Shown here piece after piece: positions 8,566 to 46,758 of a DNA stretch of 64,000 nucleotides (within the stretch, counting starts at the first letter, position 1; the number at the start of each line of letters is the position of its first letter). The position numbers were made by a program, and so were the translations under genes. Source of the DNA: Burkholderiales bacterium. GTDB taxonomy: Bacteria; Pseudomonadota; Gammaproteobacteria; Burkholderiales; SG8-39. Under the pieces are notes generated by a model. It saw nothing but the letters and a program-made list of their open reading frames with translations, was not told where the DNA came from and ran no database searches. The stretch covers positions 5,241-69,240 of the forward strand of contig DASPRX010000145.1 in NCBI GenBank assembly GCA_035624235.1. Direction: 5' to 3'.

Positions 8566-9663
8566 ATGGCCCAGGCGCAGCTAAGGGTGCTGCCGATGGC
8601 CCGCAATACCGTGATGGTCGTCGACGACCAGTCGACCGGCCGCGCGATTCTGGAACAGGTCGTTCGCAGCCTCGATCAGCGTGTCGTCGTCGAGGGCTTC
8701 GCGCGCCCCGTGGACGCGGTGGTGTGGGCGACGCGCCACGTGGCGGATCTCGTGCTCGTCGACTACATGATGCCGGACATGGACGGTATCGAGTTCGTCA
8801 AGCGGCTGCGAGCGCTGCCCGGTTACGAGCACATCCCGATCGTCATGGTGACGGTGCACGACGACCGCAAGGTGCGCTATGCCGCTCTGGACGCAGGGAT
8901 CACGGACTTCCTCACCAAGCCGGTCGACGCTCGCGAATGCCTCGCGCGCTGCAGAAACCTGCTCACGCTGCGGCGCCAGCAGCTGGCGCTGGAAGATCGC
9001 AAACGGCTCCTGGAAGGCATGGTCGAGGAGGCGACGCGCGAAGTGCGCGAGCGCGAAAAGGAAACCCTGCTGCGTCTTGCGCGCGCCGGCGAGTTCCGCG
9101 ACGCCGAGACGGGCTACCACCTTATCCGCATGGCGCGCTACTCGCGCCTGATCGCCGGAGCGATCGGCTTGGACCGCGACGAGTGCGAAACGGTCGAGCT
9201 CGCCGCGCCGCTGCACGACATCGGGAAGATCGGCATTCCGGACCAGATTCTGCTCAAGCCCGACAGGCTCGACGAGGGCGAGTGGGAGGTGATGCGCCGT
9301 CATCCGGTGATCGGCCACGAGATCCTGAAGGGCAGCGCTTCCAAGTACGTGCGCATGGGCGCCTTGATCGCGCTCGGTCACCACGAGAAGTACGACGGCT
9401 CGGGATACCCCAACGGCCTCGTCGGCGAGCACATCGTGCTGTGCGCGCGCATCGTGGCGGTGGCGGACGTCTACGACGCACTCACGTCGGTGCGTCCATA
9501 CAAGAAGGCCTGGCCGACCGAAGACGCACTGCAATACCTGCGCGCCCAGCGCGGCGGGCATTTCGATCCGCGCCTGGTCGACGCGTTCATCGGCGTGCGC
9601 GCGGACGTCGAGCGCGTGCAAAACGAGTGGCGCGATCCGGCCAAAGAGGCTGACGAGATCTGA
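8566..9663 (+). CDS. rpfG: Two-component response regulator with HD-GYP c-di-GMP phosphodiesterase output (RpfG-like)
   Basis: N-terminal receiver (VMVVDD, LVLVDYMMPDMDG, LTKP). C-terminal HD-GYP domain (PLHDIGKIGIP, HHEKYDGSGYPNGL, VADVYDALTSVRPYK). Strong RBS GGAAGGGGAG before ATG 8566. The stop overlaps the next ATG (TGATG). Confidence 0.85.
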   Translation: MAQAQLRVLPMARNTVMVVDDQSTGRAILEQVVRSLDQRVVVEGFARPVDAVVWATRHVADLVLVDYMMPDMDGIEFVKRLRALPGYEHIPIVMVTVHDDRKVRYAALDAGITDFLTKPVDARECLARCRNLLTLRRQQLALEDRKRLLEGMVEEATREVREREKETLLRLARAGEFRDAETGYHLIRMARYSRLIAGAIGLDRDECETVELAAPLHDIGKIGIPDQILLKPDRLDEGEWEVMRRHPVIGHEILKGSASKYVRMGALIALGHHEKYDGSGYPNGLVGEHIVLCARIVAVADVYDALTSVRPYKKAWPTEDALQYLRAQRGGHFDPRLVDAFIGVRADVERVQNEWRDPAKEADEI

Positions 9664-12194
9664 TGAACGCCCTGCTGGACGTTTTCCGGGATCTGCGCGC
9701 GCGACTGGCCGCGCGCCCCGACACCGAGCACGAACAAGCGATCGTGCGCCTGGTCGTGGGCGCGCTGATCGTCATTTATCTGCTGCCAGACGCGTTGCAT
9801 AACCGACCGGAGCCGACGCTGCCGGTGATGCTCGCCTATCTCGTGGTTGCGGCGCTCTTGCTCCTGCGAATTCTCGCTTCACCCGGTGAGTCGCATCTGC
9901 GCCGCATTTTGGCCGCCTTGGCGGATATCGGCACGATCACATGGTGCATGATGTTTCTGGACCAGCGTGCGGCGCCGATGTTTCTCTTCTACGTCTGGAT
10001 CACACTGGCTAACGGCTTCCGCTTCGGCGCCCGCTACCTCATCATCGCTCTGAGCCTCAGCGTGGCGGGTTTCTCCGCGGTGCTGATGACGAGCGACTTC
10101 TGGCAGAGCCATCTTTCGTTGGGCATCGGCCTGGCGATAGGTCTGGTCGCCCTGAGCCTGTACGTGCTCTCGCTCGTCAAGCGCATGTTCGACGCGCTTG
10201 CGCGTGCAGAGGCGGCGAACCAGGCCAAGCGCCGCTTCATCTCGGTGGTGAGCCACGAGATGCGTACGCCCCTCAACGCGATCATCGGGATGGCGGACCT
10301 GCTGCGGGATACGCCGCTCAGCCGAGAACAGGCCGATATGCTGCAGACGCTGCGGGGTTCTTCGCGCGTAATGCTCGGGCTGGTCGAGGATGTCCTCGAT
10401 TTCTCAAAGATCGAGGCCGGCAAGCTGCTGCTGGAACGTTCGGATTTCGACCTGCACGCCTTGGTGAACAGCACGTGTCGGATCATCGCCGCGCAAGCAG
10501 CGGCCAAGGGAGTCGAGTTCGTCGTCTCGATCATGCCCGAAGTCCCCCCGGCGGTGCGCGGCGACGCACACCACCTGCGCCAGGTGCTGATCAACCTGGC
10601 CGGTAACGCCGTCAAGTTCACCGAGCGCGGTAGCGTAACCGTGCACGTGAGTGCCCAGGAGGAGACGACCTCGGACGTGCGTCTCAAGTTTTCGGTGCGC
10701 GACACCGGCGTCGGCATTCCCGCGGAGGCTCAGGCGCGCATCTTCGAGAGCTTCACGCAGGCCGATCAATCGACGACGCGCCGCTTCGGCGGCACGGGCC
10801 TCGGCACGACCATCGCCAAGCAGCTGGTCGAGCTGATGGGCGGGCGCATCGGCATGGAAAGCTCAGTGGGCTTGGGCAGCACGTTCTGGTTCGAAGTCTC
10901 GCTTGAGAAGCAGGCCGAGCAGGTTGGCGTCACGCATGGCGAGCTATCCGGCGCGCGCATCATGCTGATCGGGTTTCCGCAGGCGGAGCGCGATGCACTA
11001 GAGCAAGCGCTTTCTGGTTGGGGGGCGACGGCCGTTGCCGCGGCGGACGTGGTCGACGCCGGCGCACGCCTCGTGGCGGAAATAAGCCTGGCGAGGCCGT
11101 ATCACAGCGCGCTGCTTCATGCGCACGGCGAAGACGGCCAGCTCGCACTGCGCTTCCGGCGCGTAGCACCGGATCCGGCGCCGCCGCTGGTGCTTGCTGT
11201 TCTGCGCGAAGCTGGCGTGCCGCGCTTTGCGGCATTGTCTTCCGGCTTTGCTGCCGTGCTCGAGATGCCCTTCGACAAACGGCAGCTGTTCAATGTTCTC
11301 CACTCGGTAAGCGCTGGCGACGAGGCACACGAAGGGGTCGTACGGCTGCAGGACTACGCGCGTCGCAACGCGAACGCGCGCAAGCTGCGCGTACTGGTCG
11401 CCGACGACAATCCAACCAACCGCGAAGTGCTCGGCAAGATCCTCGAAAGAGGCGGCCACGAGGCGACGCTCGTGGCGGACGGTGAACAGGCGCTCGACGC
11501 TGCAGAGCGTGAACAATTCGATATCGTGCTGCTAGATCGCAACATGCCCATCATGGGTGGCCTCGAAGCGTTGCAAGCAATGCGGCTACTTTCCGGGCCC
11601 AGCGCCCGCTTGCCGATCGTGATCCTATCGGCGGACGTGACTCCTGAGGTACGTAGCGAGTGCCTTGACGCAGGAGCCGATGCGTACCTATCTAAGCCTG
11701 TCGAGGCGGCTCGATTGCTCGAGCAGATTCAGGGCCTGGTCGTTGGCAAGTCCCTTACGGATACGCCGCAACCCGCACTCGAACAGGTGTCGTTGCGGGC
11801 GACGAGCGGTGCAGGGTTCGCCTTCGGGTCCGAACCGGTCGTCAATGCCGAAACGATTGCGCACCTGGAGGCGCTCGGCTCTTCGCCGGCGTTCCTCGAA
11901 AAACTCATTGGGGTATACCTGACCGACAGCGCCGCGCTGCTCGCAAAGGTCGATACGGCGCTTGCGAGCCGAAATGTCCAGGAGTTCCGCTCTCACCTTC
12001 ATGCGTTGAAGGGATCTTCGGCCAGCATGGGGACGGACCGCCTGACCGCACTTTGCTCGCAACTCGGAAGACTGAGCGATGCCGAGCTGCGGCTGCAGGC
12101 GCCCGGACTATTTAAGTCAGTTAGCGCCGAGCTCTCCGCCGCGCGAGCGGAGCTTGAAGTCTTTCTGCGGAACCGACAACAGTCGATCGGTTAG
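9663..12194 (+). CDS. rpfC: Hybrid sensor histidine kinase with multi-TM input, HisKA/HATPase, pseudo-receiver, receiver and HPt (RpfC-like)
   Basis: 843 aa with hydrophobic N-terminal helices. H-box SHEMRTPLN and G-boxes (GTGLGTTIAKQLVELMGG). Genuine REC (VLVADDNPTNREV, IVLLDRNMPIMGG, YLSKP) and C-terminal HPt (HLHALKGSSASMG). Translationally coupled to the rpfG-like gene. Confidence 0.8.
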   Translation: MNALLDVFRDLRARLAARPDTEHEQAIVRLVVGALIVIYLLPDALHNRPEPTLPVMLAYLVVAALLLLRILASPGESHLRRILAALADIGTITWCMMFLDQRAAPMFLFYVWITLANGFRFGARYLIIALSLSVAGFSAVLMTSDFWQSHLSLGIGLAIGLVALSLYVLSLVKRMFDALARAEAANQAKRRFISVVSHEMRTPLNAIIGMADLLRDTPLSREQADMLQTLRGSSRVMLGLVEDVLDFSKIEAGKLLLERSDFDLHALVNSTCRIIAAQAAAKGVEFVVSIMPEVPPAVRGDAHHLRQVLINLAGNAVKFTERGSVTVHVSAQEETTSDVRLKFSVRDTGVGIPAEAQARIFESFTQADQSTTRRFGGTGLGTTIAKQLVELMGGRIGMESSVGLGSTFWFEVSLEKQAEQVGVTHGELSGARIMLIGFPQAERDALEQALSGWGATAVAAADVVDAGARLVAEISLARPYHSALLHAHGEDGQLALRFRRVAPDPAPPLVLAVLREAGVPRFAALSSGFAAVLEMPFDKRQLFNVLHSVSAGDEAHEGVVRLQDYARRNANARKLRVLVADDNPTNREVLGKILERGGHEATLVADGEQALDAAEREQFDIVLLDRNMPIMGGLEALQAMRLLSGPSARLPIVILSADVTPEVRSECLDAGADAYLSKPVEAARLLEQIQGLVVGKSLTDTPQPALEQVSLRATSGAGFAFGSEPVVNAETIAHLEALGSSPAFLEKLIGVYLTDSAALLAKVDTALASRNVQEFRSHLHALKGSSASMGTDRLTALCSQLGRLSDAELRLQAPGLFKSVSAELSAARAELEVFLRNRQQSIG

Positions 12195-12266
12195 TCGATC
12201 GCGCTACAATCGCGCGGCACGCGCGCACACCGCTTTTCACTAGGCTGGACCAGGAGATTTATCAGC

Positions 12267-12938
12267 ATGTCCTTTTTCATTACCCTCGTCGAAATGACCG
12301 ACGCCAACCGGCGCGAACTGGAGAACGTGCCGAAAGTCCACTCGATGATCCATCATGGACTTACGCTTGCCGAATATCGCGCTTTCCTGCACGACCTCTA
12401 TCACATCGTGTGGCACTTCTGCCCGGTGATGGCCGCTGCCGCGGCGCGTTGCGACGACAACTTCCGAGGAGTGCGCTACGAGCTATACGAGAGGATCGAG
12501 GAGGAAAAGAACCACGAGACGTGGGTGCTGGACGACATCGAGTCCGTGGGGGGCGATGTGCGTGCGGCGCGCACGGCGGCACCTAGTGTCCCGGTGCAAG
12601 CGTTGATCGCCTTCAACTACTATAGCGCCGAGCGCGTCCACCCCTGCTCAGTTCTCGGAATGCTCTACATGCTCGAGGTGGTCTCATCCGTCTACGGCGG
12701 CAGGGTGTCGGACTCGATCGCGCGTGCCCTCGGGCGCGATGTGAACGGCGGGGGATTCAAATTTCTATCCTCGCACGCAACCATGGACGTCGATCACATG
12801 GCGAAGCTGAACAAGCTGGTGAAGACGATCGACGACCCGATCGCGCAGTCCGCAATCATCAATTCAACCCGCGTCAACTTCTACCAATTTAGCCACATGT
12901 TCGGCGAGGGTGGATTCGCCTCGCTCATCGCAGGCTAA
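12267..12938 (+). CDS. Heme-oxygenase-like fold protein, putative diiron oxidase/oxygenase (HDO, 'iron-containing redox enzyme' family)
   Basis: 223-aa ORF with RBS AGGAGA 9 nt upstream and helical composition. Candidate metal-ligand pattern is E80-x2-H83 (EEEKNHE), E137 (YMLEVVS) and H170-x3-D174-x2-H177 (SSHATMDVDH). Coding is clear. The family assignment is from motif and fold recollection only. Confidence 0.6.
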   Translation: MSFFITLVEMTDANRRELENVPKVHSMIHHGLTLAEYRAFLHDLYHIVWHFCPVMAAAAARCDDNFRGVRYELYERIEEEKNHETWVLDDIESVGGDVRAARTAAPSVPVQALIAFNYYSAERVHPCSVLGMLYMLEVVSSVYGGRVSDSIARALGRDVNGGGFKFLSSHATMDVDHMAKLNKLVKTIDDPIAQSAIINSTRVNFYQFSHMFGEGGFASLIAG

Positions 12939-12981
12939 ATGGCCTGGCGGTGACAGCGATTACTGGGGCCGGGCGAAGGAC

Positions 12982-43430: not shown

Positions 43431-44909
43431 ATGAGTGCTAGTGGCCCTCCCGCAGGCACCGCGCTTCCTTACCCGCGCTCGTTTCTGGGGCTGCTGCTTG
43501 CCGGCTTCACGCTGGTGACCCTGCCACTCGTCGGTGCGCTCGCCTACTCGGCTTGGCACACGGAGCGCCTCGCCCAACAGAGCGGCAACGCCGTATTCAA
43601 TGCTGCGCGGGCCGCGCGCGCGAGCCGAGCGCTCGTGAATCGCATTGGATCCATCGAGCGCCTGGCACAACAGATTGCGCTCACCTCGGACAACGAGCTG
43701 ATGGATGACTTCACCAAGGTGCATGCGAGCTTCAAGCAGGTCGCAGGCGAGCTGGCGCGGCTGCCGCTGGACCGTGCGCAGGTCAGCGCGCTCAATCGGA
43801 CGGTCGAAGAGGAGCAGGCGTTGTATGACCAGCTGAGCGCCGACCCGCGGCCGGCGCTCGATCCACGCGTGGTGGCCGACAAGACCGGCCAACTCGCCGA
43901 AGATGCGTATCAGACGCTCGCCATCAGCTATCTGGTGGCAGACCGCGAGGTCGAGCGCCTCCGCGCCAACGCGGAAATGGTGCAGCAGCGGCTGATCCTT
44001 CTGGTGATCTTCAGCACAGCGCTGGCGCTTGCCACCGCGCTTGCGCTGACGCGCTTCATCGTGAGGCCCATTGCCCAGCTGGACGCATCGATTCGGCAGC
44101 TTGGCGGGGCGGACTTTGCGCGCCCGATCAAAGTGCACGGGCCGGCCGACCTGCAGTTCCTTGGCGAGCGGCTGGACTGGCTGCGCCGTCGGCTCACCGA
44201 GCTGGAAGCCGAGAAGAACCGTTTCCTGCGAAACCTGTCTCACGAGCTCAAGACTCCGCTTACAGCCCTTCGGGAGGGTGCCGAGCTGCTGAACGACGAG
44301 GTCGCCGGACCATTGGCACCGGCGCAACGACAGGTGGTCGCCATCATGCGCGACAACAGCCTGAAGCTGCAGCGCATGATCGAGGACCTGCTCGATTACC
44401 AGCGCGCGCTGCGCGCGGCGGCTTCGCTCGACGCAAAGCCTGTGGCGCTGCAAGAGCTGGTGCGCGAAGCCGCCCGCGCCCATCAGCTTGCCGCCCGCGC
44501 CAAGCGCCAGCGCTTGGCGCTTGAGCTTGAGCCGGTGATCCTGCTTGCGGACGCCGAAAAGTTGCGCTCCATCGTCGACAACCTGTTGGGCAATGCCGTG
44601 AAGTTCACGCCCGAGGACGGCACCATCTCCGTGCTTTCCCGTGCGCGCGACGGGGAGGTCACGATCGAAGTGATCGATTCGGGGCCCGGCGTGCCGTCTG
44701 AGGAGCGAGAATCGATCTTCGACAGCTTTTATCGCGGCCGCGCCCAAGCAAGCGGTCGCGTGGAGGGCAGCGGACTCGGACTCGCCATCGCGCGTGAGTA
44801 CGTCGAGGCGCACGGTGGGCGCATCGACGTGGTAGCCGGCGCACGCGGGGGTCACTTCCGGGTGACGCTCCCGCACAGGACGGCTGCGGCCATCGCGGAG
44901 GCGGCATGA
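43431..44909 (+). CDS. Sensor histidine kinase (2 TM, HAMP, HisKA, HATPase), GlrK/QseE-like by context
   Basis: 492 aa with H-box SHELKTPLTAL, an N box (NLLGNAVKFTP) and a G box (GSGLGLAIAREYVEAHGG). It is first in a kinase-lipoprotein-sigma54 RR trio. Confidence 0.8.
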   Translation: MSASGPPAGTALPYPRSFLGLLLAGFTLVTLPLVGALAYSAWHTERLAQQSGNAVFNAARAARASRALVNRIGSIERLAQQIALTSDNELMDDFTKVHASFKQVAGELARLPLDRAQVSALNRTVEEEQALYDQLSADPRPALDPRVVADKTGQLAEDAYQTLAISYLVADREVERLRANAEMVQQRLILLVIFSTALALATALALTRFIVRPIAQLDASIRQLGGADFARPIKVHGPADLQFLGERLDWLRRRLTELEAEKNRFLRNLSHELKTPLTALREGAELLNDEVAGPLAPAQRQVVAIMRDNSLKLQRMIEDLLDYQRALRAAASLDAKPVALQELVREAARAHQLAARAKRQRLALELEPVILLADAEKLRSIVDNLLGNAVKFTPEDGTISVLSRARDGEVTIEVIDSGPGVPSEERESIFDSFYRGRAQASGRVEGSGLGLAIAREYVEAHGGRIDVVAGARGGHFRVTLPHRTAAAIAEAA

Positions 44910-45403: not shown

Positions 45404-46758
45404 ATTCCGACGCCCCCAAAATCCTGCTGGTCGACGACGACAAGGACCTGCTGCAGCTGATCGTGATGCGTCTTTCCGCGGCGGGCTATACGGTGGCGAC
45501 CGCCGATTCCGGCGAGAGCGCGCTCGCCAGCCTCGCCGTCTCGCGGCCCCAGCTCGTGATCACCGACCTGCGCATGCACGGCATGGACGGGCTCGCGCTG
45601 TTCGACGCTATCCATCGCCACGCTCCCTCGCTGCCGGTCGTGATCCTGACCGCGCACGGCACCATCCCCGAGGCGGTGGCGGCGACCCGGCGCGGCGTGT
45701 TCAGCTTTCTGACCAAGCCGTTTGACAGCAAGCTGCTGCTCGATACCGTGTCGGACGCGTTGCGGCTCTCCAGCCCGCCCGCCGGCGGTCAGGGAGAGGA
45801 TTGGCGCGCGGGAATCATCACGCGCTCCCCCGCCATGGAGGACCTGCTCGCGCAGGCACGCCGGGTCGCCGCATCGGACGCGAGCGTGTGCATCTACGGC
45901 CAGAGCGGCACCGGAAAGGAACTGCTAGCGCGCGCGATTCACCGTTCGAGCCGGCGTACCGGCGCTCCCTTCGTCGCTGTGAACTGCAGCGCAATTCCCG
46001 AGGGGCTGCTCGAGTCCGAGCTGTTCGGTCACAGAAAGGGATCGTTCACCGGCGCCACGCAGGACCGTCGCGGCCTGTTTCAGGCCGCGCAGGGCGGTAC
46101 GCTCTTCCTAGACGAGGTCGGCGACATGCCCCTCGCGATCCAGGTCAAGCTGCTGCGTGCGCTCGAGGAGCGCGTCGTGCGGCCGGTCGGCTCGAACGAG
46201 GCAGTAGCGGTCGACGTGCGCATCATCTCCGCCACGCATCGCCGGCTTGAGGAGCGCATCGCCGCCGGCGAATTCCGCGAAGATCTCTTTTACCGCCTGA
46301 ATGTCGTCAAGCTCTCCCTGCCGGCCCTCGCCGAACGTCGCGAAGACATCCCGCTGCTCGCCAACCACTTCCTCGAGCGCATGGCCGAGCGTTACGGGCG
46401 CCCGCGGCTCGCCTTTTCGCCCGAGGCCATGCAGCGTCTGGTGTCCGCGTCCTGGCCCGGCAACGTGCGTCAGCTGCTGAACGTGGTGGAGCAGTCGGTG
46501 GCGCTGTCGGCCACGGAAGTGGTGCCGGCGTCGCTGGTCAACCAGGCGCTCGACGCGCGCGACTCGAGCCTCACGCCGCTCGATGAGGCGCGCCGCGCCT
46601 TCGAGCGCGACTACCTGGTGCGAATCCTGAAGATCACCAGCGGCAATGTCACGCAGGCTGCCAGGCTCGCCGGACGCAATCGCACGGAGTTCTACCGCTT
46701 GCTCGAGCGCCATGCGCTCGAACCGGGCATGTTCAAGGGCGCGGCACAGCTGCACTGA
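45400..46758 (+). CDS. Sigma-54-dependent response regulator (NtrC family, GlrR/QseF-like by context)
   Basis: 452 aa from MNSDAPKILLVDDD. REC domain (ITDLRMHGMDG, TKP). AAA+ domain (GQSGTGKELLARAIH, ESELFGHRKGSFTGA). Fis-type HTH (GNVTQAARLAGRNRTEFYRLL). Confidence 0.88.
   Translation: MNSDAPKILLVDDDKDLLQLIVMRLSAAGYTVATADSGESALASLAVSRPQLVITDLRMHGMDGLALFDAIHRHAPSLPVVILTAHGTIPEAVAATRRGVFSFLTKPFDSKLLLDTVSDALRLSSPPAGGQGEDWRAGIITRSPAMEDLLAQARRVAASDASVCIYGQSGTGKELLARAIHRSSRRTGAPFVAVNCSAIPEGLLESELFGHRKGSFTGATQDRRGLFQAAQGGTLFLDEVGDMPLAIQVKLLRALEERVVRPVGSNEAVAVDVRIISATHRRLEERIAAGEFREDLFYRLNVVKLSLPALAERREDIPLLANHFLERMAERYGRPRLAFSPEAMQRLVSASWPGNVRQLLNVVEQSVALSATEVVPASLVNQALDARDSSLTPLDEARRAFERDYLVRILKITSGNVTQAARLAGRNRTEFYRLLERHALEPGMFKGAAQLH

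Follow-up and report, generated by a model that had tools for sequence, protein, structure and literature searches.

Signals of the diffusible signal factor (DSF) family control virulence, biofilm formation, and cyclic di-GMP (c-di-GMP) levels in many proteobacteria. Characterized RpfF enzymes release a free 2-enoic fatty acid from acyl-acyl carrier protein (acyl-ACP), and in Xanthomonas the acyl-CoA ligase RpfB turns over the DSF signal as well as the fatty acids freed by the thioesterase activity of RpfF. To our knowledge, the only explanation offered so far for the structural diversity of DSF signals is which substrate RpfF chooses, and no oxidase occurs in the described rpf clusters of Xanthomonas or of Burkholderia and Cronobacter. 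Here, we analyzed a 64,000-nucleotide stretch of DNA from a Burkholderiales bacterium (contig DASPRX010000145.1; the whole stretch is hereafter called the window), in which a gene for a putative heme-oxygenase-like dimetal oxidase (HDO) lies between the genes for an RpfC-like sensor kinase and an RpfF-family crotonase. A comparison of genomes revealed that the oxidase and crotonase genes are consistently neighbors and that the two enzymes are occasionally encoded as a single protein. Our findings suggest that this oxidase-crotonase pairing is a distinct, previously undescribed variant of the DSF system.

The window locus resembles the Xanthomonas rpfB-rpfF-rpfC-rpfH-rpfG cluster in possessing an RpfC-type hybrid kinase with an Hpt domain and a REC-HD-GYP regulator, and it shares with both this cluster and the RpfF-RpfR systems of Burkholderia and Cronobacter an RpfF-family crotonase carrying both catalytic glutamates. 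The RpfG-like regulator scored 89.9 bits for Response_reg, 114.9 bits for HD_5, and 72.8 bits for HD in Pfam, and the HD and GYP motifs (LHDIGK and GSGYPNG) could be read in its translation. Its stop codon overlaps the start of the kinase gene, the product of which has a hydrophobic, multi-span N-terminus and exceeded the Pfam thresholds for HisKA, HATPase_c, Response_reg, and Hpt. The kinase gene ends 72 nt before the oxidase start codon on the same strand, and the crotonase gene is convergent with the oxidase gene across a gap of 43 nt. The 223-aa open reading frame (ORF) and both spacings had been called in an earlier, sequence-only reading of the window, the coordinates of which were exact. 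The four best PDB matches of the crotonase (6DGN, 3M6M, 5FUS, and 7ZQ7) were RpfF/DfsA-type enzymes with E-values of approximately 1e-52, compared with 1e-16 for generic enoyl-CoA hydratases. The protein scored 352.8 bits in the NF006452 model, which has a cutoff of 177, but its 218.3 bits in NF053515, the equivalog model for Xanthomonas RpfF, fell short of the required 550; its identity to RpfF of Xanthomonas campestris pv. campestris is 40%. On these sequence comparisons, the crotonase is an RpfF-family enzyme of a branch other than the Xanthomonas type; the name rpfF given in the sequence-only reading thus holds for the family and not for the Xanthomonas equivalog. In a neighbor-joining tree, the window crotonase, which is 39-40% identical to its counterparts in the described systems, fell outside the pair formed by the X. 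campestris and Cronobacter enzymes. The catalytic glutamate pair was retained in 78 of the 78 oxidase-linked crotonases. Xanthomonas also has rpfB, whereas a tblastn search of the 64-kb window detected no RpfB-like AMP-binding ligase gene, a weak negative given the divergent AMP-binding probe used. As judged from its gene products, the window locus is a DSF-type signaling cluster.

The association between the oxidase and the crotonase extends far beyond the window. The survey included one genome per species (80 loci, with oxidases 47-91% identical to that of the window), and neighboring genes were identified by tblastn; the scan pattern was derived from a four-sequence alignment, as the diverse alignments A1 and A2 offered no stretch that was conserved enough. 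An RpfF-like crotonase gene was found beside the oxidase gene in 78 of the 80 species-level genomes, with the linkage holding down to 47% oxidase identity, and the contigs of the remaining two break off at the oxidase gene. The rpfF-HDO neighborhood, previously noted at a single locus, was thus found to be conserved, and it occurred in three arrangements. In the window type (57 loci), the gene order is rpfG-rpfC-oxidase with a convergent crotonase gene, and the RpfG-like regulator is kept upstream at 54-94% identity. In the second arrangement (20 loci), the oxidase gene is followed by the crotonase gene on the same strand with gaps as short as 20 nt; this order was observed in Rubrivivax, Rhizobacter, and Piscinibacter genomes, as well as in cultured Noviherbaspirillum and Herbaspirillum. 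In the third arrangement (4 loci), the crotonase is upstream of the oxidase, and these are the fusion loci described below. An RpfC-like hybrid kinase gene was nearby in all three arrangements. In Noviherbaspirillum galbum 17J57-3, genes for a REC-EAL regulator, an RpfC-like kinase, the oxidase, and the crotonase are all co-directional; the EAL domain of this regulator stands in place of HD-GYP, so that the output enzyme has been swapped and is still a c-di-GMP phosphodiesterase. Cultured carriers of the module include this strain, Herbaspirillum sp. CPCC 101687, and Lacisediminimonas profundi, and most carriers are Burkholderiales of soil and freshwater, together with some alphaproteobacterial genomes. 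The nearest relatives of the window locus are uncultured Burkholderiales genomes. As a separate observation, two genomes (loci L009 and L011) possess a second, partial oxidase copy with 70-72% identity over 162 aa. They also contain a 32-aa remnant of the 3' end of the crotonase gene, located between the oxidase gene and the complete crotonase gene, and the pattern resembles that of a local duplication or insertion. In three further genomes (L022, L026, and L035), the oxidase and crotonase genes are separated by an additional 0.9-1.7 kb of DNA.

Crotonase, linker, and oxidase are joined in a single ORF in three divergent sequences: P0126 (668 aa), P0138 (605 aa), and a 628-aa protein from an alphaproteobacterial genome (L066). 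When 1.8 billion cluster representatives were searched exhaustively, P0126 and P0138 appeared as long proteins among the oxidase relatives. Their N-terminal crotonase domains share 45-46% identity with the window crotonase over approximately 275 aa and are connected by a low-complexity linker of approximately 100-150 residues to a C-terminal domain that is 50% (P0126) or 40% (P0138) identical to the window oxidase. Across all three fusions, the crotonase halves are 38-46% and the oxidase halves 40-50% identical to the window proteins. The three fused crotonases formed one clade in the neighbor-joining tree and share 57-66% identity with one another, a pattern that probably reflects one old fusion that was maintained while the crotonase domains diverged. 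P0126 was present on two independent contigs from separate assemblies. At locus L084, it adjoins a full-length RpfC-like kinase with 34% identity to the window kinase over 787 aa, membrane region included, and a gene for an MMPL-type lipid exporter lies directly downstream of the fusion gene. Genes for a LuxI-type autoinducer synthase, a receptor of the LuxR type, and a dioxygenase of the PhyH family lie just past this exporter at the same locus; two different cell-to-cell signaling systems are therefore located side by side.

A sister HDO subfamily (28-37% identity) provided a second view of the partners with which this type of oxidase is associated. Here, the oxidase forms the C-terminal domain of proteins of approximately 700 aa with an AMP-binding (acyl-adenylating) N-terminus, or it is encoded by a separate gene that overlaps the AMP-binding gene. 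In both the fused and the overlapping cases, a short-chain dehydrogenase gene follows the oxidase, and a gene of the PF12261 "thermostable hemolysin" family often precedes the AMP-binding gene. Because their partners are crotonases or AMP-binding enzymes, both oxidase branches are tied to enzymes acting on acyl groups or carboxylic acids, and the acyl-activating partners of the sister subfamily suggest a fatty-acyl class of substrate for the window oxidase. One of the sister operons (L088) is embedded in a hopanoid/squalene locus encoding squalene-hopene cyclase, SQS_PSY, MMPL, and MlaC. A literature search on the operon of AMP-binding, thermostable hemolysin, and dehydrogenase genes yielded nothing useful.

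The HDO superfamily is defined by a seven-helix heme-oxygenase fold (alpha7) and a ligand set made up of three histidines and three carboxylates (3H/3C) contributed by three core helices, according to a 2026 review (PMC13108848). The window oxidase scored 67.6 bits for PF14518 (Haem_oxygenas_2, iron-containing redox enzyme; gathering threshold, 28.9; E-value, 1.6e-18), well beyond a chance resemblance, and its relatives comprised 1,265 homologs in a 90%-clustered database and 945 clusters at 50% identity in the exhaustive search. A PDB search with the single sequence returned 3DDE as the sole match (E-value, 7.7e-11) and did not find UndA. A profile built from 32 diverse homologs (24-71% identical to the window protein) retrieved 3DDE (5e-35), CADD/CT610 (2e-13), UndA (3.4e-9), 3OQL (a TenA homolog of Pseudomonas syringae; 1.9e-8), and MboA (2.5e-8), with much weaker matches to TenA proteins and heme oxygenases. 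The AlphaFold2 model obtained from the homolog alignment was an all-helical bundle with a predicted local distance difference test (pLDDT) score of 95.9 and a predicted template modeling (pTM) score of 0.91. Foldseek aligned this model with 3DDE (template modeling [TM] score, 0.84), the Fe/Mn form of CtCADD (0.83), 3OQL (0.77), UndA (0.74-0.76), and BesC (0.71), and it also matched heme oxygenases. The closest solved structure by both sequence and fold, 3DDE, is a structural-genomics protein without an assigned function (Sden_3740 of Shewanella denitrificans); the motifs EExxH, E, and HxxxDxxH are kept in its alignment with the window oxidase, although identity is only about 20%.

The candidate metal ligands are E80, H83, E137, H170, D174, and H177, and this assignment rests on column equivalence with UndA and CADD. 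In the model, E80 and H83 are located at the junction of helices 64-80 and 83-93, E137 on helix 128-154, and H170, D174, and H177 on helix 165-185. In the profile alignment to the UndA structure 4WWJ, the six residues paired with chain positions E103, H106, E161, H196, D200, and H203; given that the chain numbering is the native numbering plus 2, these correspond to the native UndA ligands E101, H104, E159, H194, D198, and H201, exactly as the sequence-only reading had given them. The six residues also fell on the CADD ligand columns. Together with D90, they were at least 90% conserved among the 32 homologs, and the ligand pattern was complete in 84 of 87 related loci, so that residues first picked out in one translation turned out to be nearly invariant. 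By fold, PF14518 membership, and ligand columns, the protein is an HDO as the review defines it and a putative dimetal enzyme, in agreement with the earlier proposal of a heme-oxygenase-like metal oxidase. The possibility that it is instead a metal-free TenA or PqqC, raised at the same time, came out negative: TENA_THI-4 reached 16 bits, below its gathering threshold of 22, and covered residues 26-84 only, and no NCBIfam PqqC model matched at E-values up to 1. The JGI name "PQQ biosynthesis protein C" is an automatic label.

Among characterized HDOs, UndA, the founding member and a fatty acid decarboxylase of Pseudomonas (4WWJ and 6P5Q), offers a parallel in its helical fold, its identical ligand spacing (ExxH ... 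E ... Hx3Dx2H), and its substrate class; UndA acts on free C10-C14 fatty acids and is the free-fatty-acid HDO of the 2026 review (PMC13108848), and the same class is suggested here by the partner enzymes. The window oxidase is nonetheless not an UndA orthologue, since the two are 14-16% identical and match through the profile only, behind 3DDE and CADD, and UndA is a stand-alone enzyme without linkage to a crotonase or sensor kinase. CADD/CT610 (1RCW and 8VA9), the Fe:Mn self-sacrificing p-aminobenzoate synthase of Chlamydia, has the same fold and 3H/3C set but spaces its own first ligand pair as Ex6H rather than ExxH. MboA (the mangotoxin acetylenase; 9YPI) and BesC (7TWA) belong to the same superfamily and demonstrate that the desaturation of an alkene or the fragmentation of a chain is within reach of the HDO scaffold (PMC13108848), although they act on amino acids, occur in unrelated gene contexts, and are very distant in sequence.

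Functional coupling between the oxidase and the crotonase is indicated by their near-constant adjacency (78/80), the three arrangements in which it occurs, and the natural fusions. We consider it reasonably probable that the oxidase and the crotonase act jointly on a fatty-acyl substrate and that a diffusible signal is made or tailored in this way. The oxidase would be an HDO of the cytoplasm that activates O2 at a dimetal center (Fe/Fe or Fe/Mn) and serves as a dedicated partner of the RpfF-family crotonase. In the proposed scheme, the crotonase would dehydrate 3-hydroxyacyl-ACP, hydrolyze the thioester, and free a cis-2-enoic (or related) fatty acid, a step suggested by its family membership and conserved catalytic glutamates. 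The oxidase would then bind this acid, or an acyl precursor, at its six-ligand site and modify it with O2 and two electrons, and the reaction may be a hydroxylation, a desaturation, or an oxidative cleavage of a C-C bond. Members of the superfamily are known to carry out the first two as well as oxidative decarboxylation (PMC13108848). Finally, judging from gene content, the RpfC-like kinase may sense the modified lipid and control c-di-GMP turnover via the REC-HD-GYP regulator (REC-EAL in some relatives). A further proposal, which we hold only tentatively and regard as somewhat doubtful, is that the two enzymes jointly produce a signal of a new chemical class and need O2 to do so, so that the kinase would report oxygen as well as cell density. 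Candidates for such a signal are oxygenated, further desaturated, or decarboxylated DSF-type fatty acid derivatives, the last including a volatile alkene, diene, alkyne, or methyl ketone. The formation of an alkene or diene by UndA-like chemistry is speculation.

Several observations weigh against a biosynthetic partnership. UndA chemistry begins with the abstraction of a beta-hydrogen, which is unfavorable on a cis-2-enoic acid, and neither this step nor the decarboxylation transfers simply to such a substrate. The module has no conserved gene for a redox partner. The identities of the oxidases and crotonases to the window proteins are correlated (r = 0.95), which shows only that both genes have been inherited jointly and reveals no interaction between their products. 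With the crotonase of the fusion clade as the seed, a scan of metagenomes yielded only five loci with RpfF-like genes (34-41% identity), none of which had an oxidase nearby, and no further fusions were found among them. RpfF-family genes without an adjacent oxidase thus exist and the oxidase is not required across the family; it accordingly marks a distinct DSF variant and not a universal component. Lastly, the window oxidase gene belongs to the sensor operon and is convergent with the synthase gene, an arrangement that also suits the modulation or removal of a signal.

This last point is the basis of the best-surviving alternative, according to which the oxidase inactivates the RpfF product, or clears free fatty acid by-products, in place of RpfB. 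A turnover enzyme is likewise encoded beside rpfF in Xanthomonas, the window-type oxidase gene follows rpfG and rpfC and faces the synthase gene, and the window lacks a detectable RpfB-like gene within the limits of the probe described above. UndA also demonstrates that this fold can destroy a fatty acid carboxylate (PMC13108848). On the other hand, it would serve no purpose for a synthase to carry the enzyme that degrades its product, and the covalent fusion has been kept in three sequences whose crotonase domains have drifted to 57-66% identity. Co-directional operons with 20-nt gaps would similarly amount to a futile cycle if the oxidase did nothing but destroy the signal, and the MMPL exporter gene directly 3' of the fusion suggests that the product of the pair is exported. 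The sequence-only reading had proposed both tailoring and destruction of the signal as possible roles; for these reasons (fusions, tight operons, and a downstream exporter), we favor biosynthesis or tailoring and regard removal or reset of the signal as unlikely.

A second alternative is that the oxidase is a non-catalytic regulator, namely an O2-sensing, iron-sensing, or fatty-acid-binding subunit that modulates the synthase or the kinase, by analogy with the REC domain of RpfC, which sequesters RpfF in Xanthomonas. The gene layout of the window type points to co-transcription of the oxidase gene with the sensor genes, and fusion to the synthase would suit an allosteric regulator as well as an enzyme. 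The metal sites of HDOs are also labile and responsive to substrate, although the 2026 review mentions no purely regulatory member (PMC13108848). The conservation of six ligands and D90 across 24-91% identity is a pattern typical of an active enzyme, as is the fusion of this domain to acyl-adenylating enzymes in operons of biosynthetic appearance, which makes a regulatory role improbable in our view. A third alternative, in which the oxidase has a housekeeping function, such as that of a self-sacrificing p-aminobenzoate synthase of the CADD type, and lies near rpf genes by coincidence, is scarcely credible. In its favor, CADD was the second-best match by sequence and structure, CADD orthologues are found in folate gene clusters (PMC9522330), folK lies approximately 3.2 kb away in the window, and the gene immediately upstream of the L086 fusion encodes FolB. 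Against it, the window protein reached 16.1 bits against a cutoff of 200 for TIGR04305, the sacrificial Tyr27 of CADD (PMC9522330) is replaced by V24 (V, L, I, or M across the oxidase family), and most other contexts contain no folate genes (neighbors include mutL, gamma-glutamyltranspeptidase, and sulfate permease) while the crotonase is constant.

The coordinates of the module and of the features mentioned here are summarized in Table 1. The signaling module lies between two housekeeping blocks, queA-tgt-yajC-secDF and panC-dNK-folK-pcnB, and the GC content dips from the 3' end of the kinase gene through the oxidase and crotonase genes to the next intergenic region; given this dip and the position between conserved blocks, the module may have been gained horizontally. 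A scan for promoters and terminators around the oxidase gene gave no signal above background. A small ORF without a Pfam match is located between the crotonase gene and panC, and a 78-aa gene was called at the equivalent spot in close relatives. Approximately 32 kb downstream of the module, a second histidine kinase core, 34% identical to that of the RpfC-like kinase, and a receiver-domain match probably represent an unrelated two-component system.

Table 1. Positions of the signaling module, its sequence features, and the related loci discussed in the text (window coordinates unless a locus is named)
Feature	Location	Strand	Details
RpfG-like response regulator	8566-9663	+	REC + HD-GYP (c-di-GMP phosphodiesterase type)
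RpfC-like hybrid sensor histidine kinase	9663-12194	+	843 aa; HisKA, HATPase_c, REC, Hpt
Shine-Dalgarno-like AGGAG	12252-12256	+	10 nt 5' of the oxidase ATG, by sequence inspection
Putative HDO oxidase ORF	12267-12938	+	223 aa; starts with ATG at 12267, and its stop codon ends at 12938
Candidate ligand codon E80	12504-12506		
Candidate ligand codon H83	12513-12515		
Candidate ligand codon E137	12675-12677		
Candidate ligand codon H170	12774-12776		
Candidate ligand codon D174	12786-12788		
Candidate ligand codon H177	12795-12797		
RpfF-family crotonase (DSF-synthase type)	12982-13908	-	308 aa; Glu148 in GGGFE, Glu168 in LPEILF
Stretch of lower GC content	11400-14400		GC 0.59-0.62 vs 0.65-0.74 in the flanks
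Small ORF	14468-14719	+	83 aa
Gene at the equivalent spot in close relatives	L001:12414-12650		78 aa
Second histidine kinase core	44214-44831		
Receiver-domain match	45553-45768		
Second, partial oxidase copy	L009:1032-1600		
Second, partial oxidase copy	L011:1047-1615		
Module of N. galbum 17J57-3	L061:4506-9699		REC-EAL, kinase, oxidase, crotonase
Alphaproteobacterial fusion	L066:1994-3880		628 aa
LuxI/LuxR/PhyH genes of the fusion locus	L084:12671-15345		
Sister HDO operon	L087:7279-10918		
Sister HDO operon	L088:7409-11019		
Sister HDO operon	L092		
Sister HDO operon	L093		

The searchable full-text literature (subscription-only papers were outside its scope) yielded no publication in which HDO or PF14518 enzymes are connected with rpfF or DSF, and the statement in the sequence-only reading that no described DSF system is known to have such a partner stands within that range. 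According to the 2026 review, functions have been assigned to only about a dozen HDOs out of more than 10,000, none of them in cell-to-cell signaling (PMC13108848). If the proposal of a new chemical class of signal were true, the window oxidase would be the first HDO assigned to cell-to-cell signaling and the second with a fatty acid substrate. The subfamily is unusually tractable in this respect, because the fused crotonase is a candidate source of the substrate and the adjacent kinase is a built-in biosensor. With a conserved oxidase, in some cases fused to the synthase, DSF signaling would gain a tailoring step that depends on O2, which would imply unrecognized signal chemistry in a broad, mostly Burkholderiales set of bacteria.

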